NCBI GenBank assembly: GCA_040389905.1
Contig: JAZJZK010000012.1
Location: 126,929 to 190,928 of the forward strand
DNA from: Gemmatimonadota bacterium
GTDB taxonomy: Bacteria > Gemmatimonadota > Gemmatimonadetes > Gemmatimonadales > Gemmatimonadaceae
DNA: 64,000 bases
Direction: 5' to 3'
Part shown: in pieces, positions 21,348 to 51,894 of the stretch
Position numbering within the stretch: position 1 is the stretch's first letter
Layout of the letters: the number at the start of each line of letters is the position of its first letter
Translations under genes and position numbers: made by a program
The notes under the pieces: model-generated
What the model saw: the letters and a program-made list of their open reading frames with translations, nothing else
Database searches by the model: none
What the model was told of the DNA's origin: nothing

Positions 21348-21357
21348 GAGGCGACTC

Positions 21358-31902: not shown

Positions 31903-32147
31903 GCGGAGCTGGGCTGGATGGCTGGTACGGCAAGCACTTCCGATGGTAGAAGTTACAGAGAGGTGTCGGCGCTGAACACTCGCTGAACGCGATCTGGCAT
32001 CGCAGCCCGACACTGACGTGCGCAACGACGGGAGCACCCGGTCTCGGCCCCACGAGCGCTGTCAGAGCCATGGTCTAGGCAGCTTGCTGAATGCATGCAT
32101 ATCCGCAATGTTGCGTGCAGAGACATGGACTCCCACTGGAGAGAACG

Positions 32148-32906
32148 ATGGGCACCAAGACCGGCATCGAGTGGACCGACGCAACCTGGAACCCGATGAC
32201 GGGCTGCACGAAAATCTCTACCGGCTGTGATCACTGCTACGCGCACACGCTCTCGCAGACGAAGACTCGCGAGGTATACCTGAAACATGCGCCGGTAAGG
32301 AACACGCCGGAAAACATTTCAGATCCCTTCGCTCCGCGATTTTGGGAAGAGCGGCTCGATCAGCCGCTTCGTTGGCGCCAACCGAAGCGTGTCTTCGTCA
32401 ACTCTATGTCCGATGTGTTTCATGCACACTTCTCGCTCGCGCAGATTCAACGTGTATTTGAAGTGATGGTCGAGGCGCCGCAGCATCAATTTCAGGTACT
32501 TACCAAGCGGCCAGAACGGGCGTTACGCTTCGCGGACGATCTTCCGTGGGCCTCGAATATCTGGATTGGCACGTCGATCGAGGACATGAAGGTCGCCAAA
32601 CGTGCCGACTTTCTCCGCGGCATCAAGGCCGCTGCGGTTCGGTTCATCTCCGCTGAGCCACTCCTGGGTTCCCTTGATCAGCTTGACCTCACGGACATCG
32701 AGTGGGTAATCGGCGGTGGCGAAAGTGGCTCTGGCCACCGAAGGGTCGATGCTGCGTGGGCAATCGGCCTACGCGATAATTGCGAGCGCAGCGGTGCTGC
32801 ATTCTTCTGGAAACAATGGGGTGGACATACGCCGAAGGCAGGCGGGCGGCTCCTCGAAGGAAGAACACACGACGCGTATCCGGTAGATCTAGTTGCTGCT
32901 GGGTAG
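32148..32906 (+). CDS. DUF5131 / phage Gp37-Gp68 family three-Cys-motif (radical-SAM-like) protein
   Basis: IEWTDATWNPMTGCTKISTGCDHCYA, FVNSMSDVFH, LTKRPER, SAEPLL, WVIGGGESG, FFWKQWGG. Confidence 0.93.
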   Translation: MGTKTGIEWTDATWNPMTGCTKISTGCDHCYAHTLSQTKTREVYLKHAPVRNTPENISDPFAPRFWEERLDQPLRWRQPKRVFVNSMSDVFHAHFSLAQIQRVFEVMVEAPQHQFQVLTKRPERALRFADDLPWASNIWIGTSIEDMKVAKRADFLRGIKAAAVRFISAEPLLGSLDQLDLTDIEWVIGGGESGSGHRRVDAAWAIGLRDNCERSGAAFFWKQWGGHTPKAGGRLLEGRTHDAYPVDLVAAG

Positions 32907-34079
32907 GACCTGGGGGTTGCTCGTAGCGTCGGAGAGCGTGAGCATAGTGCCCTCGGATAGGTTAGAGGCAACGAGCGAACTGAGCGCACCGCACTTCACC
33001 AGTCGGCGAACCGCTGCCTTATGGTGCATCTCCCGGAAGTCGGGCCCGAAGAGCGCAGCCAGCTCGGCGCGCAGGTCAATGAACTTCATCGACCGGCCCT
33101 CCGAGACCAGGGTGCTGACGATCGCCCGGTCCAATGCGTCCAACGGATAGCGCGGTTCCCGAGGTGGTTCGGCGATGTGATCGAAGATCGATACCTGCCC
33201 GCGTTTGCGATCCTTCGCCTTCACTGTGTCCTCGTACAGTGAGTCTTCTGTCGTAGACACCGCATCGTTCAGGAATGCCGCCCCGTGCGAGCTATCGGTT
33301 CCGTGAATCAAGAAATACTTCGGTGCGGCGGGGTACTGCGGTCGAATAGGTATCACCTGGACATACTTGAATCGAGCCCAGAAAAGGTTGAGATAGGAGG
33401 CAAGCAATTGCATCTGATCCGGTGGCTCTGCCGGATCCTCTTCCATCGCGTCGATGAGCTGCTGCGTGTCCACATTGAGACGCTCGAGCAATCGCTGAAA
33501 GCTCTTCGCCGTCTTCTCCTGCGTGGCGGACCGGTCGCGTTTGCGGAGCCACCCTGTGAAGCGCGCCATGAGCCCCGGATCGATCCGCGCAAGTACTTCC
33601 GTCGACGTTCCCTTCCGTCCGGCGAGAATTGGGGAAACGTGCTCAACCACCATGTCCTTCAGGCCGTACGGATCGATAAAGAAGAGCGTTGGTTTCCCGC
33701 GTACGGCCGCCAGTATCGCGGGCATCGCCTCGAAGTATTGCTGTTCGTAGACCACCGCACAGGGAGGCCGCAGTGCGAGGTAGGGTTTCAGCGCGATTCG
33801 AAGCTTTGCCGCAGTCTCGGGCACGGCCTCGCATGCATAGACGACGAGTCGGCCGCGATCATTGGCCGAGAGAAACTCGTCGTTCCACTGGGCCGCGAGG
33901 AGTGGAGAGCCCACAGCGCCGTCATCATATCGGCCCTCCCCGGCGCATGTATCCACAAAGGCGAGCTCACGGTACCCGTGAGACAACTTGTAGACCCAGA
34001 TGCGCACGTATTTTTCGAGGATCTGATGCTTGTATTTACTCCATTCCTTCCGGCGCTCGAAAAAAGGATCGGGGCTCAC
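32889..34079 (-). CDS. tcmP: Three-Cys-motif partner protein (SAM-methyltransferase-like fold plus C-terminal wHTH)
   Basis: WSKYKHQILEKY, FVDTCAGEGRY, GSP, LFFIDPYG. Converges on and overlaps the DUF5131 gene. Confidence 0.88.
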   Translation of the reverse strand: MSPDPFFERRKEWSKYKHQILEKYVRIWVYKLSHGYRELAFVDTCAGEGRYDDGAVGSPLLAAQWNDEFLSANDRGRLVVYACEAVPETAAKLRIALKPYLALRPPCAVVYEQQYFEAMPAILAAVRGKPTLFFIDPYGLKDMVVEHVSPILAGRKGTSTEVLARIDPGLMARFTGWLRKRDRSATQEKTAKSFQRLLERLNVDTQQLIDAMEEDPAEPPDQMQLLASYLNLFWARFKYVQVIPIRPQYPAAPKYFLIHGTDSSHGAAFLNDAVSTTEDSLYEDTVKAKDRKRGQVSIFDHIAEPPREPRYPLDALDRAIVSTLVSEGRSMKFIDLRAELAALFGPDFREMHHKAAVRRLVKCGALSSLVASNLSEGTMLTLSDATSNPQVLPSSN

Positions 34080-34332: not shown

Positions 34333-35979
34333 TTAAGCGCCCGTGAAGAGGTGGCCGACTAACCACGCAAGCGCTCGCCACACCCCATATCCGAGCCACC
34401 CCATCGCGAGAAGTACAAGCATGGCGACCGGCAAGGTTATGAGTAGCAGATTGACAGTGTACCTCCACGCGGAGCTGTGGACGGGCAGGCGACCAATCGG
34501 TAAGACACGTGCGGCAGCAGCAATCAGCTGCTGGGCGACGATCCTCTGGTTGGCGTTAGCCTTTTGGATGATATCGTGGGCGCGCGTCCACTCGGGAGCG
34601 AGTCCTTCTGCGTACCACTCGGCCGGAGGCAATCCGTTGCATACCACATCTGGCATAGCTTGCTTCACCATCAGGTCCGCGACGAAGTATCCCTGCGCGA
34701 TCAGCAGCTCGAAGACGTCGGCCTCCAAGGCATCGAGGTCGGTGCGGACACGCGACAGTTCCGAAACCAAGGAGGGCTCAAGGCCTCGATAGCGCGGGGG
34801 CACGTCGATCCCGCCGTCCTCGGGCGCGGCGAACATGTTCCGCGCCAGGTCAGCGCGATGAAGAAGCACCTGTGCACAGGCAGTGAACTGCACGCCGCGT
34901 GCGGGCGACCCAATTGCCGTCAGCGCCTCCGCTTCCGCCGCCGCGGCTGTCAGTGCTTCGCGCACATCTCCTGGCACACCGCTCGCCGCAGTTTTCCGGA
35001 GAGATCTCCCGAGCAATCGCAGACGTGTGGCCGCCTCAGTTGGATGCACGCCATGCGTCATTTCGTGCGCGAGTTGCCGCGTAGTGGCGCCAAGACGGTC
35101 ATGCACCACTTCGACAATTCGCAGAAGGCGTGCTGGGCCAAAGCCATCTGCATACTCACGCTCTGGAGGCGCTGCCCCAGAAATGACCACATGCGTGATC
35201 TTGTGACCGCGAAGTGCATTAACCCCTTCATTGTCGTAGAGACCTCCATCTACCAGTTGAAAGCGTACGGAGCCCGAGGGCGCGCCATATCGCTCGCGCC
35301 ATCGGCTGACTGTACCTGGTCGCTCAACTGGCGGGCGCTCCCACCGTCCCTCGCTAAGCAGGTCGCCCCGCATTCGCTCCCACCGTGTATCGAAAGCGTA
35401 GGAATCCGTCAGTCCCGGATAGGCGGCCGATGCGGCGACTGCATCGGCGACTCGGATTCCTCTAGTGCGGTCGGTCGCGCCAGCGAGGTAGTCACCGGCG
35501 CGATCCGCCATGAATCGCCAACCTTTCCCAGTGCGGAGGTTCGTAGCATTGATCGCGATCCACAAGGGCAGCTGGTCAAGCGTAGCTCCTTTGAACATCC
35601 GACGGTCGAGTTCCTCAGCTATCAATCCGGTCCGGGACGCTCGCGACGAAACCATTGATCGCAAGGTTCGCAGGGCTCGTCTTGGCGTTCCTAGGAGCGC
35701 GCGCGACCGCAGGTTGTCGAGCAGAAGCGACTCGATCTCGACGATAAGCTCATCGACCGCGTAGCTTCCCGGCGCACCGCCAGATTGTGCGCAGCGCAAT
35801 GCGTAGAGTGCACCCGTTATGGAACCACCTGATACCGTCGACAACGCCTCGATGCGCGCAAGCACGCCGAGTTCCTCGAGGCGCTTGAGCACGCCGAGAT
35901 GGTATGCGGCAGCGCGAAACCCGCCGCCCGACAGTGCGAGCCCGAGATGCACCCGCGCGGCCGGCGCGCTTAGAGCCAT
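34333..35979 (-). CDS. Patatin-like phospholipase with C-terminal TM helix
   Basis: LALSGGGFRA, STVSGGS (catalytic Ser), AVAASAAYP, LVDGGLYDN, hydrophobic C-terminus. Confidence 0.9.
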   Translation of the reverse strand: MALSAPAARVHLGLALSGGGFRAAAYHLGVLKRLEELGVLARIEALSTVSGGSITGALYALRCAQSGGAPGSYAVDELIVEIESLLLDNLRSRALLGTPRRALRTLRSMVSSRASRTGLIAEELDRRMFKGATLDQLPLWIAINATNLRTGKGWRFMADRAGDYLAGATDRTRGIRVADAVAASAAYPGLTDSYAFDTRWERMRGDLLSEGRWERPPVERPGTVSRWRERYGAPSGSVRFQLVDGGLYDNEGVNALRGHKITHVVISGAAPPEREYADGFGPARLLRIVEVVHDRLGATTRQLAHEMTHGVHPTEAATRLRLLGRSLRKTAASGVPGDVREALTAAAAEAEALTAIGSPARGVQFTACAQVLLHRADLARNMFAAPEDGGIDVPPRYRGLEPSLVSELSRVRTDLDALEADVFELLIAQGYFVADLMVKQAMPDVVCNGLPPAEWYAEGLAPEWTRAHDIIQKANANQRIVAQQLIAAAARVLPIGRLPVHSSAWRYTVNLLLITLPVAMLVLLAMGWLGYGVWRALAWLVGHLFTGA

Positions 35980-36007
35980 CCCTGACGCTCCGAACTCACT
36001 CCAGTGC

Positions 36008-38317
36008 TCACCCCAGGTCAATAATTGCACCGTCCGGCCGCAAGATGGTCGGCTGTCGTCCGACCGGCATGCTCGCGACGAACGTCGAGATGCCACTGTC
36101 ACCGACGATCATCATTACGGCTGGCAAATCATCTGCATCAAGCGCCTCCGTGATCCAGACGAACACCTTCATATCGTCCGCCGAGGGAAGCGGCGCACAG
36201 CCCTCCGGGTGCGAGTGCCACTCACCGATATAGTGGAGCTGCCCTGCCGTTGCCTCGCGCACACGCTCCACCTCCGCGATCAATCCCGCAGCTCCACGAA
36301 TGTAAAGCGTGGGCCACTCCTGGCTATCGGGCGGCGAGGGGATTGTGTCCACCACATAGACAACTCGACGGGCTACGTCGACGGCACCCAGGAGTACACC
36401 GCCGGTCTCGCTCGGCAGCTTCGCTATGCGTAGTTCGCGAAGGCGCGCGAGCAGGCCCTCGTCCGTCACGATGCGCCAGTCTCCGACGGAGACGTCAAAT
36501 ACCGGATGCACCGCCACCTCGACAGACTGGACCCCAAGCGAGGACTCATTGAGTCGCCACACCCGGATCACGGCGCCAGTCTCGTCGACCACGCGTTCCA
36601 AAGCCTGTGCCCCGAGTGCCGCGAGAGCGGTGACGCGTGCATGGGGTAGCTGACTGCTCACGTCGCGGCAGGATCTACCGTAGCGCTGACGATTGACCGC
36701 CCCCCGTAACGTGCCGGCAAGCGCGGGCTCATGGCTGATCGCACGGTAGTACTGCATCTCAAGCGCATCCAGGCGTACAGCTCGATTGGTTGACTCCGCG
36801 AGAAGCACGAGGTCCGTGCCCATGGGATTGAGGAAGAGCGAGATCCGGCGCGGAGGCGCGGTCACGTCACGCGCGAGCGCACGGGCCACGGCAACCGACG
36901 CAGACATGTCGACAATAGAAACGGCGTTTGCGTACGCTTGCTCCAACGTCGCACGCTGTTCACCAGGTGCAAGCATATTGGTGACGATTGAACGGTGCAG
37001 GTCGCCGTCCGCTGCGGCGTCGCGCATTACACCTGAAGCAACGCCAATTGCCTTGGCGAACCCCACCGCACTATTGCCGAGCGCGTGACGCGCGACGTTG
37101 TGCGGCAGGAATACATCGCCGTCCACCACAGTCCAACGACCGAATGCGGTGCGCGCCACAAACCCGAGCACTTGCGATCCGAGAGCGCCGGCCCCGATGG
37201 CGACGAAAGGTCTGTCGTCAACGTCGCGCCGTCCGTTGAACCGCGCTCCGTCTTCCCGGCGATGTTGGAAATATGCATAGAGAGGCAAGACGCTGATGGA
37301 CGAGCCCCCATCGCCACCTCCGGGTCCGAGGATAGTTCCCAGTCCATGTGGGGTCGCCTCCCACAAGCCCAGTGACTTCCCTACATCCGCAATGGATTCG
37401 ACTGTGAGGAATGCCCATGGCTGCTCGATTTCTGGCTCCACACTGTCATCACGCCGCAACGGCACCATGACCACAATTGCGACTTGTGCGTCGAGGCCGA
37501 TGCCCTCCTGCTTCCATTCTCGTAGCACAGCGGCCAACTGAGCGCGCAGGTCATCTTCCGGGGTCAAGAGTTCATGCAGGTTCGCAAGCGTCCCGGGCGC
37601 CCGGCGAATAGCGCCGTGCGTACGCGGGGTCGTTCGAACACACGCGACCACGAATCGACGCTCGCCCTGCTGAACCTGGTCTGGTGGCACCGCGACGAGC
37701 ACCTGGAGGCCACCGATCTGGCCGCGCCGCTCCAGACCTAGCGCCGCATTCTCTTTCCGCAGGATGTTCGGCAGGATGATCCACCCAGCGCCGCCCAGCA
37801 TCAGCGGCTCGAGCGGCTGATCCGCCGCGTGGAGTTCGCCGCGTGAAGTCAACCGAAGCCACTCGCGCACCAGCGTAACGAACCGGCCCGGCGTCCAGGC
37901 GGCGCGGAGTTCGTCGAACGCCACGTCGAAAAGGCAGAGGCTGCGCGGGTACTCGTACTCTCGAAGGTTTACATGCGAAACGTCGCGCGGAAAGTCTTCG
38001 CGCAGGGCAAACGTTTCGGGCGGAGGCAGTTCACCTTCGTCCGCCTGCGGCGCCACAAACCACGCGCCAATTCGCTCCACAAGCCGGATGTCGTGTGCCG
38101 TGCGTTGCGGTGTCTCCACTTCGACCTCCATGATCACGAGATCGCCCGCAGAGCCGCGCCGACAATCGATCAGGCGGGCGAACGGTATCCCCGCGATGAG
38201 ACGCCGCGCTAAGGTGCGCGCGTCTTCGCGTCGGAGGCCATCGGGTTCGCATACGAAAGGCGCGAGCCCGAGCAGATCGAGTCGCGCAACTGCCGACGGC
38301 GCGATGGGGACGGTCAC
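36008..38317 (-). CDS. Prokaryotic E2 - E1 (ThiF) - JAB trimodular ubiquitin-like conjugation/deconjugation protein
   Basis: E2: FPRDVSHVN...RSLCLF. E1: IGAGALGS, VDGD...HNVARH, GRSCRD. JAB: ETGGVLLG...YIGEWHSHP...PSADD. Confidence 0.93.
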   Translation of the reverse strand: MTVPIAPSAVARLDLLGLAPFVCEPDGLRREDARTLARRLIAGIPFARLIDCRRGSAGDLVIMEVEVETPQRTAHDIRLVERIGAWFVAPQADEGELPPPETFALREDFPRDVSHVNLREYEYPRSLCLFDVAFDELRAAWTPGRFVTLVREWLRLTSRGELHAADQPLEPLMLGGAGWIILPNILRKENAALGLERRGQIGGLQVLVAVPPDQVQQGERRFVVACVRTTPRTHGAIRRAPGTLANLHELLTPEDDLRAQLAAVLREWKQEGIGLDAQVAIVVMVPLRRDDSVEPEIEQPWAFLTVESIADVGKSLGLWEATPHGLGTILGPGGGDGGSSISVLPLYAYFQHRREDGARFNGRRDVDDRPFVAIGAGALGSQVLGFVARTAFGRWTVVDGDVFLPHNVARHALGNSAVGFAKAIGVASGVMRDAAADGDLHRSIVTNMLAPGEQRATLEQAYANAVSIVDMSASVAVARALARDVTAPPRRISLFLNPMGTDLVLLAESTNRAVRLDALEMQYYRAISHEPALAGTLRGAVNRQRYGRSCRDVSSQLPHARVTALAALGAQALERVVDETGAVIRVWRLNESSLGVQSVEVAVHPVFDVSVGDWRIVTDEGLLARLRELRIAKLPSETGGVLLGAVDVARRVVYVVDTIPSPPDSQEWPTLYIRGAAGLIAEVERVREATAGQLHYIGEWHSHPEGCAPLPSADDMKVFVWITEALDADDLPAVMMIVGDSGISTFVASMPVGRQPTILRPDGAIIDLG

Positions 38318-39438
38318 CCTGCCCGCGGTGCCTGCGTACTGACGGCCGCGAAACCCACCGAACCCCCGGGCTTCTTGACCGTCGCGCCACGCCAGTCGAT
38401 CTCGATCGCTAGGGGCGCCGGCGCCGCGATCGAGGGGTGCTCCATCGTTACGACATACTCCCCCGACTTGTGCCGCGCGATGCGTTTGTAGTAATTGGCC
38501 GCCTGACGATGCGGCGGCTGGTCGTCGTCATCGTTGCTTGGAATCGGTTTGCTGGAGGAAACTAGCCGCGGCTTGATGTCGCCATATGTCTCGTAGAGAT
38601 CAGCAACATCCGAATCGGGCTTCGTCTCGGTGGTCCCCTTCTCCGGCCCGAGCGATTTGTAGCTGCTATGGTGCGGCAGCTTCACAATGTCCCATTTGAG
38701 CCGATCAATGCGGCCGTGGAACCTTGTGATCCGCACGAAGTCCGCGATGCACTCGTAGGTCGTGTCGCCCATGAGCATCGCGCGGGTCGTACCGCCACCG
38801 TCGCGAAAGGACGCTTGGAAGATAAGGCAGTTAGTGTTGCGGTCGTCAAACGTGCCGTCATCCTGCCGATGGGCGAATGGCGAGTGGACGAACATCTCCA
38901 GTCCTTTCGTGTTATTCGGCTCCCACCCAGGCACGTAGAGTCCAGCATCCGTGATAAGGTGCTGGCGCGAAGTGAGTGTGAGCCCCCTGCTGTTCAGCCA
39001 CGCTTCGAGCTTCGCAGGCCGAGAGAACACGCGAACGCGCTCGCCCTTCTCCAAGCGATAGCGCGCCTCGGCCCGGAGGATCTTCCCGTCTTCGCAAAGA
39101 TCCTCTTTCGTCTCCGTGATCGCCCACGCGGGCACCCAGAGCTCGTCGATTTTGATGCGGCCGTCACCCTGGTACTTGGAAGCATGTTCCAGCCAGAAGA
39201 ACGACGCAGCTCCGCATACGTGATCGTCGTCGAAGTGGGTGAAGGCAACGACGTCGAAGCGATCACGCCCCGCTGCCTTCAGGTCGGCGCGCAGTTCATC
39301 AGGCAATTTCGCGCGCTTGTCCGTCGGGTCTGTCGCGCACCGCATGTCCGCGTAGTCGAAGAGAAGCTTCTGCCCGCCGGGAAGGTCAACGCGGTATGTA
39401 TCCGCGTTGCCTAGAGGATACAGTGTGATCGTCGACAT
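38314..39438 (-). CDS. ComEC/Rec2-like metallo-beta-lactamase-fold hydrolase
   Basis: LGNAD, LFD, FTHFDDDHVCG, N-x-N-C-L, MGD, LPHHSS. GTGA overlap with the E2-E1-JAB gene. Ends in PRAG. Confidence 0.88.
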   Translation of the reverse strand: MSTITLYPLGNADTYRVDLPGGQKLLFDYADMRCATDPTDKRAKLPDELRADLKAAGRDRFDVVAFTHFDDDHVCGAASFFWLEHASKYQGDGRIKIDELWVPAWAITETKEDLCEDGKILRAEARYRLEKGERVRVFSRPAKLEAWLNSRGLTLTSRQHLITDAGLYVPGWEPNNTKGLEMFVHSPFAHRQDDGTFDDRNTNCLIFQASFRDGGGTTRAMLMGDTTYECIADFVRITRFHGRIDRLKWDIVKLPHHSSYKSLGPEKGTTETKPDSDVADLYETYGDIKPRLVSSSKPIPSNDDDDQPPHRQAANYYKRIARHKSGEYVVTMEHPSIAAPAPLAIEIDWRGATVKKPGGSVGFAAVSTQAPRAG

Positions 39439-39570
39439 TTGTGCACCTCCCTCTTAGTGAGGGAGCGCCGGGAGGAACGTCGGCGCCCCTATGACTTAAG
39501 TCTCGCTCGTTTCGAGAGTTGCCCCGCGACGGCCCCAAATAGAGGCGGCCGTTTGCACTTGGGCATGTCC

Positions 39571-40026
39571 TTACGTGCCTGACAGAAGTAGCGGCAGGCC
39601 CATTGGCGTCATGCCGTCGAGAACAAGGTGAGACGCGTAACCGGCCATTGACCCAAGAATCGCCGCTACCGCAAGCCGCCACAGACGCGCATTGAGCATC
39701 TCATTGCGCCACGCATCAGAATCCTTCGCGAGCGTCGCGGCACGCCGCTCGCACTGCGCTGCCTGGTCAAGACAATGGGCGTGGTGGCGAGCACGGGCGA
39801 GTGCACCGATGCCTGCGGCTGCCGCCAAGCTGTGTGCCGTGCTTCGATGACGTGGATTCAAAGCCGGCTCGATCAGGTCGGGGAGCAGTGCACTACCCGA
39901 TGCGCTCAGCGTGCATGCCAGGACATGTGCGAAGCGGTCCTTCTCTTCAAAGAGGGTCATCGTCGCGAGGCCAGTCACGAGGCCTGCGATGGCTCCAGCA
40001 GCAAGGTGAGTTTTCTTGTTGGGCAT
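39571..40026 (-). CDS. YdjM-like membrane-bound metal-dependent hydrolase
   Basis: KKTH, LLPDL, HRSTAHS, GYASHLVLD..TP.GLPL, plus hydrophobic helices. Confidence 0.85.
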   Translation of the reverse strand: MPNKKTHLAAGAIAGLVTGLATMTLFEEKDRFAHVLACTLSASGSALLPDLIEPALNPRHRSTAHSLAAAAGIGALARARHHAHCLDQAAQCERRAATLAKDSDAWRNEMLNARLWRLAVAAILGSMAGYASHLVLDGMTPMGLPLLLSGT

Positions 40027-40032
40027 AAGGAC

Positions 40033-40263
40033 TCAGCGACCCTGTGTGGCGACCACTAACCGCCAACGAATGGCGGAGCGGTTCGAGTGCTGATGATGGT
40101 TCTGGGGTGGTAGGGGGTTACCCTTGTTCGAGGCGACTTCGTGGGCGCACCCCTCGCATCGATAGATCCCCGAGTTGTCGGTGTTGGCCCCTGGTGTTTG
40201 AACGACATCGAACGCCGACGCCGTAGATTGCGACAAGTATCCAGAGTTCTTGTAGAGCGCCAT
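40033..40263 (-). CDS. Small Zn-ribbon protein (YjzC-like / 'protein L' type)
   Basis: PG....SGIYRCEGC.HE.....GNPLPPQNHHQH....IRWRLVV. Strong GGAGGAGAGG RBS. Confidence 0.85.
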   Translation of the reverse strand: MALYKNSGYLSQSTASAFDVVQTPGANTDNSGIYRCEGCAHEVASNKGNPLPPQNHHQHSNRSAIRWRLVVATQGR

Positions 40264-40310
40264 CCTCTCCTCCGTGAGTGGGCGCATCACCGAGATGGGC
40301 CCGTGCACGA

Positions 40311-40368
40311 AGGCTAAGTAGAGAGGGGCGGCAGGTCGTGGACGGAAGTTGGACGGAAATGGACCGCC
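40311..40368 (-). promoter_or_regulatory. Putative response-regulator-dependent promoter with tandem direct repeats
   Basis: TGGAC(GGAA) at 40339, 40350 and 40360 (10-11 bp period). A candidate -10 TAGCCT lies on the minus strand at 40316-40311; no consensus -35. Confidence 0.55.
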
Positions 40369-40375
40369 GTTTCCG

Positions 40376-41227
40376 TCAAATCAATGCGACTGTCGACGCC
40401 AGGACGCCAGAAAGGCGTGCAATTTCGGCGTGGCTGCGGCCCGCAAGCCAAGTCGTATTGATCTTCCCGATCGCAATTGCATCAGATAGAGCGTAGGTGC
40501 CGCCATCGTTCACGATGACAGTCGTCGGATCTTCGAAAGCAGCAAGTAGCACCTTTCGGAGTCGGTCAACCCGCTTATAGGCGATCTGCGCGTTGTTTCC
40601 GAAGTCGCTTAGTGCTACTGGCCGTCCATTCGCTCGCCCGAGCAGGAGATGCAGCAGCACACACAGCTCCGAATCCGTCAATTGGAAGTCGCGGCCGCCG
40701 AGTGTCAAGACGGTCCGCCCTTTTATTGACCGACCGGTGATCTCGAGAATGACCCCGACGGTCGTAGAGACGGTCGCGTCACCACACGAACCATGCTGCT
40801 CACGACCGCTCTTTCGGAGTGCCTCGCCCACTCTGCGAACGACATCCGCCTCGCTGTATGGCTTTTGGATGATATCGTCGGCCTCAAGCTTCATCAGCTC
40901 CACCGCTTCCTGCACTTCATTCGCGTGCCCACTGACAACGATTATCGGGAGCCAGACGGTTTGCATTCGGGGACTGCCGAAGCGTTTGCGAATATCGGCC
41001 AGCAACGAGATTCCGACATTCGCTCGACCTTTGATGTGCTGCGCGCTGCTGGGAATGCTGAGGTCGAGAAGTACCACGCAAGGCGTATGCGACTCCAAAA
41101 ACACGAGCGCTGCGTCGCGCGTCGCTGCGATGGTCGGATCACAGTCCATCGAACGGAGAATATCCGCGAGGTCCTCAGCGGTCGGCGGATGATCCTCAAC
41201 GATCAGTGCACAGTGAGGAGTGCTCAT
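40376..41227 (-). CDS. Response regulator, receiver plus OmpR-like winged HTH
   Basis: LIVEDH, VLLDL (phospho-Asp), IVVSG, IQKP. C-terminal LTDSELCVLLHL...RVDRLRK.L...GGTY. ATGA overlap with the kinase gene. Confidence 0.88.
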   Translation of the reverse strand: MSTPHCALIVEDHPPTAEDLADILRSMDCDPTIAATRDAALVFLESHTPCVVLLDLSIPSSAQHIKGRANVGISLLADIRKRFGSPRMQTVWLPIIVVSGHANEVQEAVELMKLEADDIIQKPYSEADVVRRVGEALRKSGREQHGSCGDATVSTTVGVILEITGRSIKGRTVLTLGGRDFQLTDSELCVLLHLLLGRANGRPVALSDFGNNAQIAYKRVDRLRKVLLAAFEDPTTVIVNDGGTYALSDAIAIGKINTTWLAGRSHAEIARLSGVLASTVALI

Positions 41228-42336
41228 CGAGTACCGCTGCGGAATTGTGGGACCGCGATGGCAATCAAGGTGCCGTCGCCCACCTTGCTCTCGATGTTAA
41301 GCGTCCCCTCATGCTCAGACTCGACGATCTTGATTGCGAGGGGAAGACCGACACCTGTACCCTGAGGCTTGCTCGAGCTGAACAGCGTGCGCGCATCAGC
41401 AAGCGCTTCGGGTATCATTCCGCAACCGCAATCGCGAACGCGAATAAGGATGGCGCCTTCGCATACTTCCGCGTCGATCTCGATCGGCCGACGGTCAATG
41501 AGTCCGCTGTACGCCTCAACAGCGTTGTGAAGCACATTCGATAACGCTTGGACAAATCGTGTTCGCGATACTACAAACTCAAGGGACGCGTCGACACGAT
41601 TCCTAATCTCCACCCGCATTGTCTCCGACACTCCGTCGGTCGTTCGAATCGCTTCGTCCAGGAGCCCGCGTACTCCTTCGCTCGAATACTCGAGATCAGG
41701 TAACGCTGCGTACTCGCGCATCGCATTGAGCACTGCATTCACTTGCTCAACGTCCTGTTCGACCCGACGGACCCTTTCAACCACGCGCGCGTCTGCCTCA
41801 GCGGCGAGAAGCTTGCGAAGTTCCTCGACTTCACGTTCCAGCGGCGTCAAGTACTTGATCACCTCATGGTACAGTTCGCGCGCGAACGTGTTCGTCATAT
41901 CGCTCGCCGCGCGATAGACCGCAGCGCGACCCTGCGCCCCGAAGCGTATGTAGATCGCCTCCAAGATGCCCTCAAGTCGCCGCTCGTGCTCACGACCGAG
42001 CAGGCCCGCCGCGCGCCAATCGCGCCGCCGTAAACTCGACGACTGCGCCGCCTGCTGTACCCGCGCATTCGCATCCGCTGCAAGGCGTGCAAGGAGCGCA
42101 TCCAAGCCAGCATGTCGACATTCTCCGGCCACGAGTGCGACCGCGCGCCGCACCTCCCATTTCTCGTGGGTGGCGAGGATCACAAGACTATCGACTATCG
42201 CTTGAGAATCGGCCGATCCGACGGGCTCGCGCTGTAGCCACACGCTGGCGGCGCGAATTCCCTGTTCGGTTTCCATCCAGGACACGGATCGAAGCCTCGC
42301 CAGAACCTCCTCGGCGCTTCCACGGTCAGTGACCAT
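41224..42336 (-). CDS. Cytoplasmic histidine kinase with N-terminal HEAT-like repeats
   Basis: KWEVRRAVA and DANARVQQAA (HEAT), LYHEV (H-box), NVLHNA, DCGCG, GTGVGL. No TM segment. Confidence 0.9.
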   Translation of the reverse strand: MVTDRGSAEEVLARLRSVSWMETEQGIRAASVWLQREPVGSADSQAIVDSLVILATHEKWEVRRAVALVAGECRHAGLDALLARLAADANARVQQAAQSSSLRRRDWRAAGLLGREHERRLEGILEAIYIRFGAQGRAAVYRAASDMTNTFARELYHEVIKYLTPLEREVEELRKLLAAEADARVVERVRRVEQDVEQVNAVLNAMREYAALPDLEYSSEGVRGLLDEAIRTTDGVSETMRVEIRNRVDASLEFVVSRTRFVQALSNVLHNAVEAYSGLIDRRPIEIDAEVCEGAILIRVRDCGCGMIPEALADARTLFSSSKPQGTGVGLPLAIKIVESEHEGTLNIESKVGDGTLIAIAVPQFRSGTR

Positions 42337-44200
42337 ACCTCTTCATGCGTTCGAGAAACGCCGAAGCACCGCCTTCGAGGATGCGCTCTACAGCTTCCTT
42401 GCATTCATCGACTGTACCGACCTCGGCCACTCTTGCTTGCTGTCCGTCCGAGTCGAACACAAAGATGCGATCAGCGTCACCAAGAACGGGAATGTTCGGG
42501 TTGTGCGTCACGAACACCACTTGGCGCGTCAATTTCACGGCTTTTAGTGCGCCAACCACGGTGTCGAACACGAACGCATTGTCGAGATTGTCCTCTGGTT
42601 GGTCAATCAGCAGAGGGCGATCGCTCTGCCTGAGAAGGATTGGAAGGACCACTGTACAGCGCTGACCCGTCGAGAGGTGGGACGATTCCTTGTACGTCTC
42701 ACCGTCGCGCAGTTCAATACACGGAACGTCCCCGAGGTCAATGGTTTGAAGATCGTACGCGGAGCCGCTTTCTCGGAGCGTGTCGATAATGCGTCGAGCA
42801 CGTTCGGCGTCAATGCCCGCGCGCTCGGCCAGTTCCTCCGTTGCTTCGGCAAACACGAGCGCTGCGAGTTCGGTGGGCAGCAGAGCAGTCACCAGTCTGT
42901 CAGCTGCTAACCCCTGTTTCATGCGCTGCCCTTTCAACTGTTCGGCAACGAATGCGCGATAGGCATCGAGGTTGGCCGTTTGTCGGATGGACACGCGTAG
43001 CGAAGGAACGTCGGCCGACAGTTGTGCCGCAATCGCCCTGCGACGATTGTACCGTTCGTCACGCGCCTCTGACAAACGGGCGAGCAGTTCGGAGCGAGCA
43101 TTAATCGCAGCATCTCGCACCGCTGTTCGGCCATTTAGCTCGCGCACGGCGGCCTGTGCCGTGGCCAACGCCGCCTGCAGTACGCCGCGTTCTCGTGCTT
43201 GCTCTGCATGCTCCTGCGATTCCGCAAGGATGGCAGCGTACTCTGCCTCTTGTGCCACATGCTGATTCGTCAGGAGTTGACGCTGTTCGTCGATTGTCCG
43301 TTCCAGCTGGGCAGCCGCAGTCGCCGCAGTATCGGCCGCACCACGCAACGCTTCCGCGAACATCTCAATATTTCGCTGAAAGGCGGCTACCAATGCTGCA
43401 TTCTCACCGACGAGCAGGTCATCATCAAAGGCAGCATTCGCCGTGTCGCGAAATGTTGTCTCTAGAGCGGTGATATCTCGTGTCGCCCGCTGAACAGCTA
43501 CGAGCCCAACTTCCGCTATACGCTCCTCGCGAATCCGCCTCGCCTTTGCTGTATGCGCGCGTGTCAGTCGCTCGCCGTCCGGACCATCCGGCTGCGTCAG
43601 ACCCCGAAGACGCTCTTCAATCCCCGCCACTTCCGCGGCCCGCGCACGTAATCCATAAATCTCGTCGTCCAAATGCAGCAATTGGGCGGCGGAAGCCTCC
43701 AGAGCTCGTCCGAGTTCTTCGAGTTCGCGAGCTAGTCGACGGTTTGCCGATTCATCGAAGCGGTCAAGCAATTGAAGCTGCGCTTCCGCGTTCGACGCGA
43801 TCTCTTCGATTTCATTTTGGCTAAACACGTCTGCGCTGAAGATTTCGTCGCGGTCGAGAGAGATAGGCACGATTTCGCCGAGCGCGCTCCGGACGGTAAT
43901 GCTATCGCCCTTTCCGCGTTCTGCGGAGTAGGAGATTCCTGCTTTGGTGTTGACGTCGATCGTCAGGCGACCGGAAGCCAAATTGCCATCTACGAGAGAC
44001 TCTAGGGCGCGCCGACGTTGCGGGTGGATCTTCTGATCAGGTAGTAGGCCCAGCGCGAACCTAAGAAACTCCAGGGCAGTCGTCTTGCCGGTGCCCCTTC
44101 CGCCGATAAAGCAGTTGAGACCGTCAGACAGATGTAGGTCCGCACCAGCGAGGAAGCCGCCGGCCACGCGCAAGCGGGTAATTCTATGATGTGAGGTCAT
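42326..44200 (-). CDS. Coiled-coil (SMC/RecN-like) ABC ATPase, TrlF/PHP-associated type without a PHP domain
   Basis: Walker A GGRGTGKT, FSQNEIE (Q-loop), long coiled coil, LSTGQR signature, LLIDQPEDNLD, VTHNP. Overlaps the kinase start by 11 bp. Confidence 0.9.
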   Translation of the reverse strand: MTSHHRITRLRVAGGFLAGADLHLSDGLNCFIGGRGTGKTTALEFLRFALGLLPDQKIHPQRRRALESLVDGNLASGRLTIDVNTKAGISYSAERGKGDSITVRSALGEIVPISLDRDEIFSADVFSQNEIEEIASNAEAQLQLLDRFDESANRRLARELEELGRALEASAAQLLHLDDEIYGLRARAAEVAGIEERLRGLTQPDGPDGERLTRAHTAKARRIREERIAEVGLVAVQRATRDITALETTFRDTANAAFDDDLLVGENAALVAAFQRNIEMFAEALRGAADTAATAAAQLERTIDEQRQLLTNQHVAQEAEYAAILAESQEHAEQARERGVLQAALATAQAAVRELNGRTAVRDAAINARSELLARLSEARDERYNRRRAIAAQLSADVPSLRVSIRQTANLDAYRAFVAEQLKGQRMKQGLAADRLVTALLPTELAALVFAEATEELAERAGIDAERARRIIDTLRESGSAYDLQTIDLGDVPCIELRDGETYKESSHLSTGQRCTVVLPILLRQSDRPLLIDQPEDNLDNAFVFDTVVGALKAVKLTRQVVFVTHNPNIPVLGDADRIFVFDSDGQQARVAEVGTVDECKEAVERILEGGASAFLERMKRYGH

Positions 44201-44854
44201 CAAAATCACTGGCGTGGCGATCGGGGCTGATCATGCGAGGCACGCTAACCTACGCCAGCGAGCCGCGTTGGCAAGGAGATTCACCGCGTTCACGAGGCGC
44301 GCGACGTACCACGGTGGGTAACACGGAGACAGCGGACGGCGACAACCGAAGCAAGGTCCGCTCGCTGTTCGTGCGACTCCGTCAAACCGGGCAGCAGCAG
44401 ACCAACGACATCGACGGGCCGTTACTGGACAACCATCATGTTGAGGCAACACCACCCGAGTGGCCAGTTCGGTCACTGCGCAAGCGGTAGTATACGCATA
44501 AGCGCCAGCGTGCGCGCGCTTCGGTGAGCGGAGCGCCGCAGATAGCGACGTTGGATTTGCACCACGCGCTGGCGCCAAGCATTCTTGTCCTTCGCTCATA
44601 CCCGACGAATGATGCGCGGAACTGGACGGTGAACATGCAGCGGTCTAGCGGAAACGCCCACGAGATTCAGGACCAGCTGTTGGTTCTGGGCCTTCTGCGA
44701 TTGACTTCCCGGATCGCGAGTGCCCATCAATGAAGAAACCGATACTGACCTGGACAACAAACTCTTGCCGTTTTTCTTCTTGTTGGCATGCGGTCATTGT
44801 GCCGAAGCCCGTAGCGCCCACGAAGGGTGACTAATCCACCGGGGTGTGCAGCTT

Positions 44855-45752: not shown

Positions 45753-48296
45753 CTACCACCCGCCCTCGACTTCCACGACTGGCACCTGAAGAGCTGTTGC
45801 CACTGGCGTCCAGATGTCCACGTCCGCCGTATCCGTTTCGATGCCGATCACAAGTGCGTATCGTGCGCCGAACCGGCTTCGATCGCGCTTGGGCTGATCT
45901 TTCCACCATCCGGACACTGGATAAATGCCGATAACGCTCCGGTCGGCAAGTTCCTCCGCCGTCCCACTCCAGACGTCCGAGTGCAGCGACCCGCGGTTGC
46001 GAGCTTCCGGTCCGAGGCACCATTCGTCGGAATCACTGTCGACGGTGGGACGCTTCTCCTCCTCGGCAAGCGCTCGCTGATTGAGTCGCTTGGTGAAGTC
46101 GTCCTCGCTTTCGTTTGGAGAAATCACCGCATATCGAAGGCCATGCGATGCATACCGGTGGCGGCGCCGCCATCCGCGCTGGCCTGGATTCGGTTCGATG
46201 AAGTATGAGAGCGTCACTCGAAGACGAACGGCCGCGCCGCCCTGAGCCCCGACCTCACGCAATGCGTCTACTGGCCAAGGCAGACGGTGCATGTGCATTT
46301 CACGCATCTTACCGGCCACGAATGGGTGAATGACGCCCTCCGCGATCAAGGTAAGTGCGTCGTTCGCACTTCGCAGTGTGCGATCGAGACTGGGTACTCC
46401 GAAGCCATAGCGACGTACGAGCCGAGACCTTGCTCTCTTCGATTCACTGCCGTCGAAGCCTTCCTGCATTGCGGGCGTCCAGCGTGCACCATGAACTATG
46501 AGCGCCCGGATCGTTTCAGGCCAGAGCGCTGGGTACTCGGCTCGAGTGATGGTCGCTATTCTCGCCACCTGAACAGCAGCTGCACTCGTCGCGAAGGACA
46601 AACCGAGCGGTGTTGCCGGATCGGCGTGGGTCGACAGGAGACAAAGATCAGGTGTCGGGAAATCGATGTTGGTGCCGTCGGTCGCGACGTTTCCGCCTTC
46701 GAAGACGACGTCAGGTTTGATCGGCCAACCCTCCGCGAATGCAACTGACGTCGTGCTCCACGGAGAGAGATCGCCGGGTCTGGCCACAGGTGACCACGCG
46801 CTCCACGTTGGCTCAGTAATGAGCGCCTTTTCGGTGTATGCCCCGACGGCCAAGGCATTCCACGCTTGCGCTGGATCGTGCACGGGTTCGACGTCACTCC
46901 GCGCCAGGTGATCGGCGTCCAGATTCCTGACGTTCCCCGCGCTTATGACGAAGAGCCGTTCGGCGTTTTGCTCGGCATCGCCGACGTAGCGAAGCCCGTG
47001 ATCGGACGGATCGAAGCTGCGTCCCACGGCCATGGCATCAATCGCCGCAGACCAGGATGTTGGCTGGCCACGATCGCGCTGGTCTGCCGCCGTGATCGCG
47101 AGAGAGAAGACGCGTGGGCGCTCGGGCGATGTGATCTCCGGACGCGCTACAGCCTGCGCCGTGATTGCACCGTACAATTCCGGCACGTTCGCGCCGTGAG
47201 GTGGTAGGATCTTGACTGACTCCAGCCGATGCCTCACGAGAACCGGATCTCTGCTGGCGAATATGGGCGCGAGATCGCCGAAAACAGCCAAGCCGGCCAT
47301 CTCCGTGCCGTGGCCTTTACTACCTTCTCCGCCGCCGTCGTCATGCGACCCCCATCCGACGTTCACGGCGGTGGCGTCCTCTGATGAGAGAAACTGCTCG
47401 AGAAGGGGATGCCCGCGATTTACCCCGGTATCGAGCAGGCAGATTGCGGGCGCGTCTGCCGGCGGAAAGACAGCGCGGGCAAGTAAGTCCCCAATCCATT
47501 CAACTTGCTCGGTCGCAGGTGTGCCTATGAACGGCGCGGCCGACTGTTTTGCTCGTCGCAGCTCGGCAAGATCATGCAGAACATCGAGGGAACCTGCCAG
47601 CTCACTCGACGTCGCGTGCACGAGGATCACCAAGCGGTCATCAAAGGCAAGGCGGCTATCGGCGATTTGAATGCTCGTCGCATCGGCGAACGAAAGAAAC
47701 CGTTCGAGTTCGCGCCCCTCGTCACGGCGCAGCCAGACTTCCCACCAGATCGACTCGCCATCCGCCGGGAAGCTGGTTGCCTCTTCCGTCCACAGAGCCC
47801 TCAGCGTTGCCCGTCGGAGCGCAGCGATGCGGTCCACCATCTCCTTGTGTTTTGGCTCGCCCTTCTGTGTGACCTTCGTTGCGTATTCCTCGAATCGAGA
47901 AAAGAAATGCTTCAGCGCCCCGTCAGGAACAAAAACGGTGGCATACTGAACCGCCGGTTCACTCTCTGCGGTTCGGACCCTTTGCACCGTGAGCAGTTCG
48001 ATTCCGAGACGTTTGTTCTCGAGTGATTCCAGTTTCAGCTCCTCGCCTGAGAGACTTTCGAACTGGATGTACAACCCAGGCACGGCCCCCTGGACATTCA
48101 CTCCCGCAACAGTTCGCTCTGCTTCGGCGTCACCCACTGCTCCACCCAGAGCAGCCCCCAATGCCTCCGCGTGCGCGACGCGGTCCGCTGGGCGGTCAAA
48201 CTGCCGAGCCTTCACCGTGCGCGGATGTGGGCTGAACGGCTGCGCCTCGGGAGGCGCGCTCACGACCAGATGCTTGCGATTCCTCGGAGCCGGCAT
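45753..48296 (-). CDS. ietS: S8 subtilisin-like serine peptidase of IetAS type
   Basis: LLDTG, GHGTEMAG, SAGN, KPDVVFEGGN, ATSAAA, YGFGVP, RGSLHSD. 12 bp downstream of an AAA ATPase gene. Confidence 0.9.
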   Translation of the reverse strand: MPAPRNRKHLVVSAPPEAQPFSPHPRTVKARQFDRPADRVAHAEALGAALGGAVGDAEAERTVAGVNVQGAVPGLYIQFESLSGEELKLESLENKRLGIELLTVQRVRTAESEPAVQYATVFVPDGALKHFFSRFEEYATKVTQKGEPKHKEMVDRIAALRRATLRALWTEEATSFPADGESIWWEVWLRRDEGRELERFLSFADATSIQIADSRLAFDDRLVILVHATSSELAGSLDVLHDLAELRRAKQSAAPFIGTPATEQVEWIGDLLARAVFPPADAPAICLLDTGVNRGHPLLEQFLSSEDATAVNVGWGSHDDGGGEGSKGHGTEMAGLAVFGDLAPIFASRDPVLVRHRLESVKILPPHGANVPELYGAITAQAVARPEITSPERPRVFSLAITAADQRDRGQPTSWSAAIDAMAVGRSFDPSDHGLRYVGDAEQNAERLFVISAGNVRNLDADHLARSDVEPVHDPAQAWNALAVGAYTEKALITEPTWSAWSPVARPGDLSPWSTTSVAFAEGWPIKPDVVFEGGNVATDGTNIDFPTPDLCLLSTHADPATPLGLSFATSAAAVQVARIATITRAEYPALWPETIRALIVHGARWTPAMQEGFDGSESKRARSRLVRRYGFGVPSLDRTLRSANDALTLIAEGVIHPFVAGKMREMHMHRLPWPVDALREVGAQGGAAVRLRVTLSYFIEPNPGQRGWRRRHRYASHGLRYAVISPNESEDDFTKRLNQRALAEEEKRPTVDSDSDEWCLGPEARNRGSLHSDVWSGTAEELADRSVIGIYPVSGWWKDQPKRDRSRFGARYALVIGIETDTADVDIWTPVATALQVPVVEVEGGW

Positions 48297-48308
48297 GGTC
48301 CTCGGGAC

Positions 48309-49298
48309 TTACTTCGAGTGACTCGCGCGCCGATCCTCGAGAGCCGCGACCAATTCCCCAGTTCGCACCTCGCGACGGTGAGCGAGGATGGCATGCTTTG
48401 CCGCTTGCTGCGCTGCCCTTGCCAGCTCCGCGTGGCTTAGTCCTTCAACAACCGCGGATACCTTCGCCCAGCCAACCTTCGACGTGTCGAGCAGCGCCAG
48501 CCTGCCGCGTAGAACCTCCACCGCCTCCTCAGTCGTCGGAAGTCCATACTTGATAACCGAATCGAATCGTCTCAGCAGGGCACGGTCAAGCAGGTCCGGA
48601 TGGTTCGTAGCAGCAACGACGAGACTGTCAGACTCATCCAGCTCCATGAACTGGAGGAACGAGTTCAACACTCGCCGAATCTCGCCAACTTCATTCTTCG
48701 CGCTGCGCTCCGCGCCAAGCGCGTCGAACTCGTCGAACAGGTAGACGGCGCGCGACTCACGGATCGTGTCGAAAATCAAACGAAGTTTGGCAGCCGTCTC
48801 GCCAAGATATTTCGTGATCAACCCGTCGAGCTGAATGGCGAAGAGAGGAAGGCCGAGCTCGCCCGCCAAGACCGCCGCCGTCATCGTCTTTCCGGTCCCC
48901 GGCGGACCAATCAGCAACAGCTTCCTCAGAGGCGAGAATCCATGCTCCCGAATCTGTGTTCGTCCGCGCTGTTCAACGAGGACGTGTTCGAGCCGGGCAC
49001 GCACGTCCTCTCGAAGCGTCATGTCAGTAAGGCGCGCTTGGGGAAAGCTCGCGGAAAGCAGCCCGACGAGTTCGCCGCGAGGCTGAACGATCGGGACCGC
49101 GCGAGACTTCTGTCCGGCGCGCGCCGTATCGCGCCGTTGCTTCGCCTCGTCTACGAGGTCGCGAAGCTCCTGCGCGAATTTCGTCTGGCCCAGCCGGGCA
49201 GCGCGAGCGGCGACCTGCATGGCGATGGCGTAGAAACGCTCGTCATCGCCTTCTGCGTGTGTGCGGACGAGTGCCTTGAACTGATCTGCTTTGGCCAT
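48309..49298 (-). CDS. ietA: AAA+ ATPase of IetAS type
   Basis: MAKADQFKALV start, GPPGTGKT, LFDEFDA, GEIRRVLNSFLQ, AATNH, LDRALLRRFD. Confidence 0.9.
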   Translation of the reverse strand: MAKADQFKALVRTHAEGDDERFYAIAMQVAARAARLGQTKFAQELRDLVDEAKQRRDTARAGQKSRAVPIVQPRGELVGLLSASFPQARLTDMTLREDVRARLEHVLVEQRGRTQIREHGFSPLRKLLLIGPPGTGKTMTAAVLAGELGLPLFAIQLDGLITKYLGETAAKLRLIFDTIRESRAVYLFDEFDALGAERSAKNEVGEIRRVLNSFLQFMELDESDSLVVAATNHPDLLDRALLRRFDSVIKYGLPTTEEAVEVLRGRLALLDTSKVGWAKVSAVVEGLSHAELARAAQQAAKHAILAHRREVRTGELVAALEDRRASHSK

Positions 49299-49739
49299 GT
49301 CAGACGCATGATCAAGGGTTGTGCGCCGATTCTCTGCGCGCTCGTGGCGCCTCCGTTTCAAGCTGAATCTACAGCGCGCGACTCGGCACTGTCGAGTCTC
49401 GTAGATTGCGGCGACGACTGGCTCCACGGAAGGGATCGAAAATAGACTCGCCCGTAGCTGTTTCCGGCCCGTAGAGCATAGACGTGACTGTAGCGGGGCT
49501 GTGCTCGCCGTCACGAAGGGCGCCGCAGGGACAATCTGCTCGGCGTGCTGCTGCCGCCTCTTCGGGGCTCCGTCGACGGAGACGAACGACGCGAGAGTCG
49601 TAATCCGGCGTGCTGCTGCCGCCGAGCGTTTGACCATTACCGACGAGCAGGCCGTCGATTGGAAAGTTGAGAAAGCTCGCTCCGGCCGACCCACGATAGC
49701 CGCTACTCCAACTACTGCATCGCGTATCTTGATAAGACC

Positions 49740-51686: not shown

Positions 51687-51894
51687 CCGCACAGTGGATA
51701 CGGAGCCTTCTACGATGAACAAGTGAGGTAGTTCCCGCCCAAGCTGCGAGGATGCTGACGAGGAAGACGGCGAGAGCGGAGCGCATGGATGTTGAAGGGG
51801 AGTGATGTCCCTACGACCATGCGATTGCGGAATGGGTTGAGACTCGGCCCGGAGCGCAAATGTGTACCTACAGGTCCGCAGCCAGGTTTCGGGG

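Follow-up and report, generated by a model that had tools for sequence, protein, structure and literature searches.

A conserved ABC-ATPase, HEAT-kinase and response-regulator triad as a predicted switch before exchangeable immune cassettes in a Gemmatimonadota bacterium

The window analysed in this work is a stretch of 64,000 nucleotides from a Gemmatimonadota bacterium (contig JAZJZK010000012.1), and the locus under study is an eight-gene cluster that begins with an ABC ATPase gene and ends with a patatin gene. The original prediction, which was made from the sequence alone, regarded this cluster as one candidate defence system in which an ATPase, a histidine kinase and a response regulator control a ubiquitin-like conjugation operon. 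The proteins of the window were classified with Pfam, PADLOC and NCBIfam. All eight open reading frames (ORFs) are present and every one lies on the minus strand, as predicted. The predicted junctions were also read from the sequence. The ATPase and kinase genes overlap by 11 bp, the kinase and regulator genes overlap at ATGA, and the metallo-beta-lactamase (MBL) and E2-E1-JAB genes overlap at GTGA. The gaps are 112 bp after the regulator, 6 bp between the Zn-ribbon and YdjM genes, 132 bp before the MBL gene and 28 bp before the patatin gene. The novel unit at this locus is the regulatory triad of ATPase, kinase and regulator, not the eight genes.

The first gene of the triad (42326..44191) encodes a coiled-coil ABC ATPase of 621 amino acids (aa), a predicted sensor related to TrlF and Ppl according to NCBIfam and alignment. 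The start was placed at the ATG at 44191, and an alternative GTG at 44209 is possible. The protein scored 300 bits on TrlF_fam_ATP over profile positions 294-944 (cut-off 350) and 108 bits on Ppl_antiphage (cut-off 1000). The profile match starts only at position 294, therefore the N-terminal PHP domain is missing. Walker A K36, the signature LSTGQ and Walker B D530-Q531 are invariant in 48 of 48 aligned ATPases, and a CxxC hook is absent from all 48. The D-Q pair in Walker B was also found in 120 of 120 database matches examined and in 116 of the 150 best representatives (32 gave no pattern match and 2 carry another pair). At least 443 relatives were identified at E<=1e-30 among 8000 scored candidates, and among the best 150 representatives, 114 have a length of 600-699 aa. 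Two longer close relatives that were inspected (855-867 aa) carry PHP and share the DQPED motif. The sequence search of the PDB with the profile gave no match at E<=0.001, only weak transporter and ABC-F matches. The nearest PDB sequences also have DQ; we take them to be engineered hydrolysis-trapped mutants.

The second gene (41224..42336) encodes a soluble histidine kinase of 370 aa with HEAT repeats, a phospho-acceptor helix (H157) and an ATPase domain (Pfam HATPase_c and HEAT_2). H157, N267/N271, D302-G304-G306 and the G2 box are invariant in 48 kinases. No membrane helix was found in the kinase, where the maximum 19-aa hydropathy is 1.13 (0.77-1.64 across the 48). The third gene (40376..41227) encodes a response regulator of 283 aa with a receiver (D55) and an OmpR/PhoB-type winged helix, as assigned from alignment, AlphaFold2 and Foldseek. 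D55, S99 and K122 of the receiver are invariant in 56 of 56 regulators. The AlphaFold2 model of the regulator has a pLDDT (predicted local distance difference test) of 85, and its top Foldseek matches are full-length MtrA, VanR, RpaA and KdpE; on this model, the regulator has the OmpR/PhoB fold. The claim that all catalytic motifs are intact needs qualification in two places, namely the Walker B motif, which is D-Q and not D-E, and the patatin serine, which sits in TVSGG instead of G-x-S-x-G.

Relatives of the kinase were searched to examine the neighbourhood of the triad. The search gave 22 loci in species genomes and 145 in metagenomes, and 80 of the latter were kept, which resulted in 102 loci in 74 clusters at 90% nucleotide identity. 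The 22 species-genome loci come from Gemmatimonadota, Acidobacteriota, Kofleriaceae and a proteobacterial metagenome-assembled genome. None of the conclusions depends on the unpublished genomes G097 and G182. The ATPase adjoins the kinase in 96 of the 97 loci that extend 150 nt or more upstream, and the regulator follows the kinase in all 97 loci that extend 250 nt or more downstream. No relatives of the kinase were found in viral contigs, and none on plasmids at E<=1e-25. The upstream side of the triads was represented by 48 proteins from 16 genome loci, which are a mix of restriction-modification (R-M), insertion sequence (IS) and metabolic genes. CBASS, Thoeris and 6A-MBL genes were found downstream. 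Judged from these neighbourhoods, the triad is a module separate from the genes that follow it.

The genes behind the triad are exchangeable. At least 1.5 kb past the regulator is available in 67 of the 102 loci (35 are short or cut), and these loci represent 54 combinations of cluster and cargo, whose labels we assigned from domain annotations. The cargo is CBASS in 13 combinations, Ubl/E1 (Bil/Bub-like) in 9, 6A-MBL in 5, Thoeris-like TIR/SLOG in 4, Cap12-TIR in 3, and SAVED-HNH, cyclase with E1 and VIT-vWA in 2 each; ten types occur singly and 4 combinations are unassigned. Defence domains of at least eight kinds are clear in 43 of the 54 combinations and looser in 7. Near-identical triads were also found with different cargo. 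Loci L036 and L050 share 90.4% identity along 3863 nt, up to 36 nt past the regulator stop, where the conserved motif described below ends. Beyond this breakpoint, L036 carries Thoeris-like genes and L050 carries YjzC, 6A-MBL and patatin. Loci L011/L087 and L068 are 89.7% identical and carry CBASS III and OLD, respectively. The cargo has therefore been swapped at the edge of the motif behind near-identical triads.

Two further cargo sets were observed among these loci. A six-gene set of TIR, E2-like, TIR, TIR, SLOG and TIR proteins follows the operator-like site in L008 (12231-17261), L016, L036 and L040/L057; it is Thoeris-like and has a CBASS-type E2. A nucleotide-cyclase protein followed by E1 and JAB, which is Type II Pycsar-like, stands under the triad in L064 (11016-13933) and L080 (10914-14774).

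The 112-bp gap between the regulator and the cargo holds an operator-like site (40339..40380), identified from its repeats and motif score. The gap contains an inverted repeat of 14 nt and two direct repeats of 9 nt with a spacing of 11 nt. The tandem repeats that had been predicted in this gap are indeed a conserved, single-copy motif. The 40-nt consensus is CTGAaGGAAACT-N6-AGTTTCCGnCACACCtCCGCCG and it is located after the regulator. The motif was found in 48 of 58 regions by a leave-one-out score of at least 14.6, compared with a maximum of -5.3 in shuffles and -9.8 in control regions upstream of the ATPase (n=45). In 1.17 Mb of loci, the site lies behind the regulator in 70 loci, one per locus. 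The other 58 motif hits consist of 56 reverse readings of the same palindrome, one weak hit and the site of L002, which an IS displaced to 2.4 kb from the end of the kinase and which remains before CBASS. The window site is the best in its own 5.08-Mb genome (20.9, next 15.2). A global regulon was ruled out, as one site per genome was found (the pattern was matched in 3 of 5 genomes).

A predicted activator-dependent sigma70-type promoter (40311..40339) adjoins this site, based on its sequence and on the spacing in related loci. In 42 of 49 related loci, a TAnnnT hexamer lies 23-24 nt past the motif (shuffle mean 2.2, maximum 9 in 1000), and the -35 position is poorly conserved across them. 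In the window, a weak -35 ACGACC (40339-40334) is followed after 17 nt by a -10-like TAGCCT (40316-40311) at a motif offset of 23. Half-sites at an 11-nt period beside a weak -35 are the layout used by OmpR/PhoB activators. The gap can therefore be proposed as an operator-promoter candidate from its sequence. Lineages with an altered motif (window/L001, L013/L017/L081 and L093/L100) also show an altered predicted recognition helix in the regulator, which kinship alone could explain.

The cargo in the window consists of five genes. The MBL-fold enzyme (38314..39438, 374 aa) scored 380.6 bits on NF058524 (cut-off 220), and the E2-E1-JAB fusion (36008..38317, 769 aa) scored 595.8 bits on NF058523 (cut-off 320). 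Both proteins exceed the curated NCBIfam cut-offs, and by these profiles the two genes are the known 6A-MBL system, in agreement with the original prediction. This operon type corresponds to row 6a of Iyer et al. 2006 (PMC1779556, available part). C128 (E2), C550 (E1) and E637/H701/H703/D714 (JAB) are invariant in 5 of 5 aligned proteins. The MBL protein ends in PRAG, which is kept in 6 of 6 homologues, 5 of which have a short extension beyond it. In MBL pathways, as in Type II CBASS, the enzyme of the pathway is stated to be itself conjugated (available part of PMC11601596). The conservation of PRAG fits such self-conjugation, and by this analogy the tail is a likely conjugation site. A 7-nt inverted repeat at 39447-39465, just 5' of the MBL start, would cover the purine-rich ribosome-binding site, and translational control of MBL is possible.

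The last gene encodes a patatin-like phospholipase (34333..35979, 548 aa; Pfam Patatin) with a C-terminal membrane helix (hydropathy 2.48 at residue 511). Patatin follows 6A-MBL in L020 (as a fragment), L050 and L055, and also on plasmid CP039912.1 without a triad. From these occurrences, 6A-MBL cassettes apparently have patatin as an optional third gene. In L018 (11975-13087), L026 (7943-8629) and L055 (6387-7193), 6A-MBL is followed by another MBL-fold gene of a different kind, which replaces or precedes patatin (PDC-M48B in L018). This second MBL-fold gene suggests that effectors within 6A-MBL may be swappable.

The first two cargo genes are small. The Zn-ribbon gene (40033..40263, 76 aa) is an accessory first cargo gene similar to 'protein L' and YjzC; its ESM Atlas features match 'Protein L' at 0.96-0.97 with recognition below the bar of the tool, so this match serves as a lead only. 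The second gene (39571..40026, 151 aa) encodes an accessory membrane protein of the YdjM family (Pfam YdjM). Similar small leaders (YjzC, DUF3892) stand before CBASS or 6A-MBL in other loci, and such genes (protein-L-like, YjzC, DUF3892, YdjM) accompany many cargo types. YdjM precedes CBASS, OLD, cyclase-E1 or Ubl cargo after the triad in other loci, and it was found together with MBL in none of the 102 triad loci. By this distribution, YdjM is an accessory gene and appears not to be specific to 6A-MBL. In the group of L069, L097, L034 and L089, the first ORF past the operator-like site encodes a conserved protein of about 71 aa without a Pfam match, which heads several cargo operons as one of these small leaders.

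The two halves of the locus occur both together and apart. The neighbourhood check that had been proposed for them found 6A-MBL directly after the triad in L018, L020, L026, L050, L055, L072 and L073. The MBL cut-off was passed in 5 of 300 genomes of the phylum, and the kinase (E<=1e-60) was found in 0 of the same 300. The MBL gene was also found on 21 plasmids, none of which carries the kinase at E<=1e-25. Three of these plasmids were inspected; a divergent WYL gene lies upstream in two, one of which has patatin as the third gene. WYL regulators thus take the slot of the triad before 6A-MBL on two plasmids.

The reading that we consider probable is that the three-gene module and its conserved DNA site form an inducible switch before an exchangeable immune cassette, here 6A-MBL with patatin. 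In this switch, the ATPase would respond to damage or infection and would act on the kinase through the HEAT repeats. The kinase would phosphorylate the regulator, which would bind the motif and activate the promoter of the cassette. Activation is predicted because the -10 is good, the -35 is poor, the site abuts the -35 and the genes are co-oriented. DNA ends are the most likely input of the ATPase by analogy, given that Ppl is toxic in recBC mutants, that OLD and Lamassu detect double-stranded DNA ends (available part of PMC13648713) and that the three Cap regulators discussed below offer a further analogy. The same part of that source argues that DNA-end sensing by ABC ATPases is widespread. 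By analogy with Type II CBASS, E2-E1 would attach MBL to targets by its PRAG tail, JAB would trim or undo this attachment, and patatin would damage the membrane. Three observations support the predicted wiring from ATPase to kinase, regulator and cargo: the triad hardly varies, the two halves occur together in other loci, and between them lies an operator-like site with a -10. The dedicated eight-gene system of the prediction is not supported.

Several observations weigh against this reading. Locus L017 has no adjacent ATPase match. Ten of the 58 regions score below 12 for the motif, the window site is a divergent variant (leave-one-out 14.6), and 7 of 49 related loci are without TAnnnT. The consensus promoter scan called no sigma70 promoter at the operator-like site and gave chance-level counts overall. 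The inverted repeat covaries, with two-sided changes in 6 of 12 pairs (0 of 500 shuffles), hence a hairpin role as RNA or single-stranded DNA (ssDNA) is conceivable. The catalytic sensing cycle is uncertain because the Walker B D-Q resembles hydrolysis-trapped mutants. The 132-bp gap between YdjM and MBL could house a separate promoter, so the control of MBL and patatin from the operator-like site remains presumptive here. Other defence and mobile genes also lie upstream of the triads.

Four alternatives were weighed against the inducible switch. The best survivor, which we consider unlikely but credible, keeps the same wiring and takes the regulator to be a repressor freed by phosphorylation, or the input to be a phage protein or a change in the nucleotide pool instead of DNA ends. 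All three known Cap regulators repress (PMC13373217, available part), PARIS AriA senses a phage protein (PMC12839542, available part), and the lack of a CxxC hook together with the Walker B D-Q is equally consistent with a DNA-end clamp and with a switch that works by ATP binding. However, a site that lies upstream of and abuts a poor -35 with a good -10 is the layout of an activated promoter, and the nearest tested relative, Ppl, responds to loss of recBC (PMC13648713, available part).

An improbable alternative is that the motif is a structural element, either an RNA hairpin that ends or stabilises the triad transcript or a recombination site for cassette swaps, and that the triad exerts no control over the cargo through it. 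The two-sided changes preserve pairing, the 7-bp arms are inverted with a variable spacer, and the homology breakpoints coincide with the end of the motif. However, the invariance of the GGAAA/TTC core across phyla exceeds the needs of a hairpin, pairing is absent at two positions of the stem (in 37 and in 31 of 45 sequences), and L078 retains the half-sites as direct repeats only. The site has no U-tract and the terminator scan made no call there. No second copy was found behind the cargo or elsewhere, the module includes no recombinase, and the spacing to the -10 hexamer is fixed.

A stand-alone defence or stress module, whose neighbours reflect ordinary clustering in defence islands, appears slightly less probable still. 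The sister family described below has no conserved cargo in the five plasmids inspected, and R-M and IS genes are among the upstream neighbours, but the third gene here is modelled with a DNA-binding output only, the cargo is co-oriented and begins right after the motif, and CBASS, Thoeris and 6A-MBL lie downstream, against one isolated TIR (L008) and one isolated ThiF (L010) in the 48 upstream proteins of 16 loci. Least probable is a dedicated, interdependent system of all eight genes, for despite the tight overlaps, the co-orientation, the triad directly followed by 6A-MBL in five independent clusters and the patatin in three loci, none of the 102 loci has the full set, the cargo is another one in 49 of 54 combinations, and 6A-MBL also occurs without the triad, with patatin on CP039912.1.

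The relay has sister families with other outputs. Five of 37 plasmid ATPase matches were inspected, and all consist of the ATPase, a short kinase and a receiver of 475-480 aa fused to a TCAD9/APH-like kinase. Their hosts are Klebsiella, Leclercia, Rhodococcus, Shinella and Caballeronia, and the same arrangement was found in genome G106. These three-gene operons lie at L134:6939-11084, L135:6966-11135, L136:6900-11126, L137:6891-11054, L138:6948-11126 and L150:7674-11920. No named NCBIfam or PADLOC model was matched by the operon in the three or four loci scanned, and from its gene content it is a candidate for an undescribed defence system. The order of ATPase, kinase and receiver persists at 24-30% ATPase identity with differing outputs, which is good evidence for a functional relay. 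Tentatively, and with rather less confidence than for the switch, we propose that a Rad50/Ppl-type ATPase lost its PHP effector and became the input that a HEAT kinase receives directly in the cytoplasm. This would give a family of infection-sensing relays with two outputs, namely the cassette-switching activator and a receiver-gated TCAD9/APH-like kinase effector; the latter would represent an undescribed defence system of three genes, carried on plasmids of Proteobacteria and Actinobacteria. A more distant triad of ATPase, HEAT kinase and receiver with a longer C-terminal region was observed at L149:13-4024, on a contig that ends before any cargo.

The triad was compared with known systems. 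CapK/CapS are described in front of operons for CBASS, Bub, Bil, MBL and type IV Thoeris (available part of PMC13373217), and this cargo range matches that of the triad. The Cap regulators, namely CapW/BrxR (WYL), CapH with CapP, and CapK with CapS, are similar to the triad in standing just upstream of diverse and unrelated immune operons. The triad also has a winged-helix fold and a conserved site with a -10 at the cargo promoter, which would correspond to the DNA-binding protein and site of the Cap class, beside the hairpin-like covariation. However, the triad is without WYL, peptidase or STAS domains (Pfam and NCBIfam gave AAA_23/21, HEAT with HATPase, and Response_reg only). It comprises a His-Asp relay, whose regulator is of the OmpR type, and a coiled-coil ABC ATPase as a separate protein, and it is a predicted activator, whereas the Cap regulators are repressors in the available descriptions.

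The ATPase resembles the Ppl/TrlF PHP-ABC ATPases in the TrlF profile match, the weak Ppl match, the DQPED Walker B/D-loop and the coiled coil, but it falls below both cut-offs and has the kinase and regulator in its operon instead of a PHP effector. The kinase and regulator share the His-box, the N/G1/F/G2 boxes, the receiver Asp/Ser/Lys and the winged-helix output with OmpR/PhoB two-component systems, but the kinase has HEAT repeats instead of a membrane helix or extracytoplasmic input. Ambrosia (XRE, MTase, HATPase, REC-wHTH, HNH) also has a two-component pair within a defence cluster, which is proposed to control transcription (bioRxiv 10.1101/2025.09.30.679545, available part), but it is described there as a fixed five-gene R-M-like system without an ABC ATPase or exchangeable cargo. 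The cargo of the window is similar to Type II CBASS with a CapV-type phospholipase (PMC11601596, available part) in E2-E1 with JAB, an enzyme with a conjugatable tail and a patatin effector, but no CD-NTase (SMODS/cyclase) match was found among the eight genes, MBL stands in its place, and the cargo is not known to use a second messenger. It follows the known 6A-MBL order of MBL and then the E2-E1-JAB fusion, but here patatin is added and the triad stands in front; the patatin extension is also known without the triad.

No description of the triad was found in the literature searched, with supplements outside its scope, and an earlier mention is possible. The triad is not described in the available parts of PMC7159879 or PMC12839542, and a predicted system that includes HATPase and REC appears in a figure legend in the available part of PMC13092281. 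At this locus, the known 6A-MBL cargo stands behind a modular controller of immune operons, a two-component one that is apparently undescribed. Its wiring is well supported by comparative evidence, and the signal and the sign of regulation are predictions. How toxic immune operons are kept quiet until needed is an open question, and the three described answers are all ssDNA-sensing repressors. If the proposed switch is true, the triad would add a fourth controller of a different design, in which an ABC-ATPase sensor feeds a two-component relay; this relay apparently activates and has a defined operator. It would also represent a new type of histidine-kinase input, in which a separate SMC/Rad50-like ATPase binds HEAT repeats. 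It would explain the regulation of CBASS, Thoeris-like, Bil/Bub and 6A-MBL systems in soil phyla that had not been searched for the known regulators. The triad could also serve as bait for new systems, as 4 of the 54 cargo sets are unassigned and 7 are loosely assigned.

The cluster lies among other defence genes. The prediction that it is flanked by a Type I R-M system and IetAS was correct as to the presence of both, with IetAS upstream and Type I R-M downstream, but neither adjoins it directly. About 1.5 kb without Pfam matches lies between the ATPase and IetS, and a TcmP-like/DUF5131 pair (PADLOC PDC-M30-like) separates patatin from the Type I R-M genes. The DUF5131 and TcmP-like genes (32091-34079) are convergent. 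The GC content of the region is 0.59-0.61 compared with 0.63 for the genome; this dip is only mild, therefore no island boundary was defined. No tRNA genes were found in the window. Upstream of the triad (45753-53883), IetS/IetA, a protein with DUF4365 and TPR, and a beta-propeller protein with Hypoth_Ymh (HEPN-like) represent more defence-island genes. At 17787-22626, an ORF of 1186 aa without a Pfam match is followed by a protein of 422 aa with a PT-TG (pre-toxin) domain.

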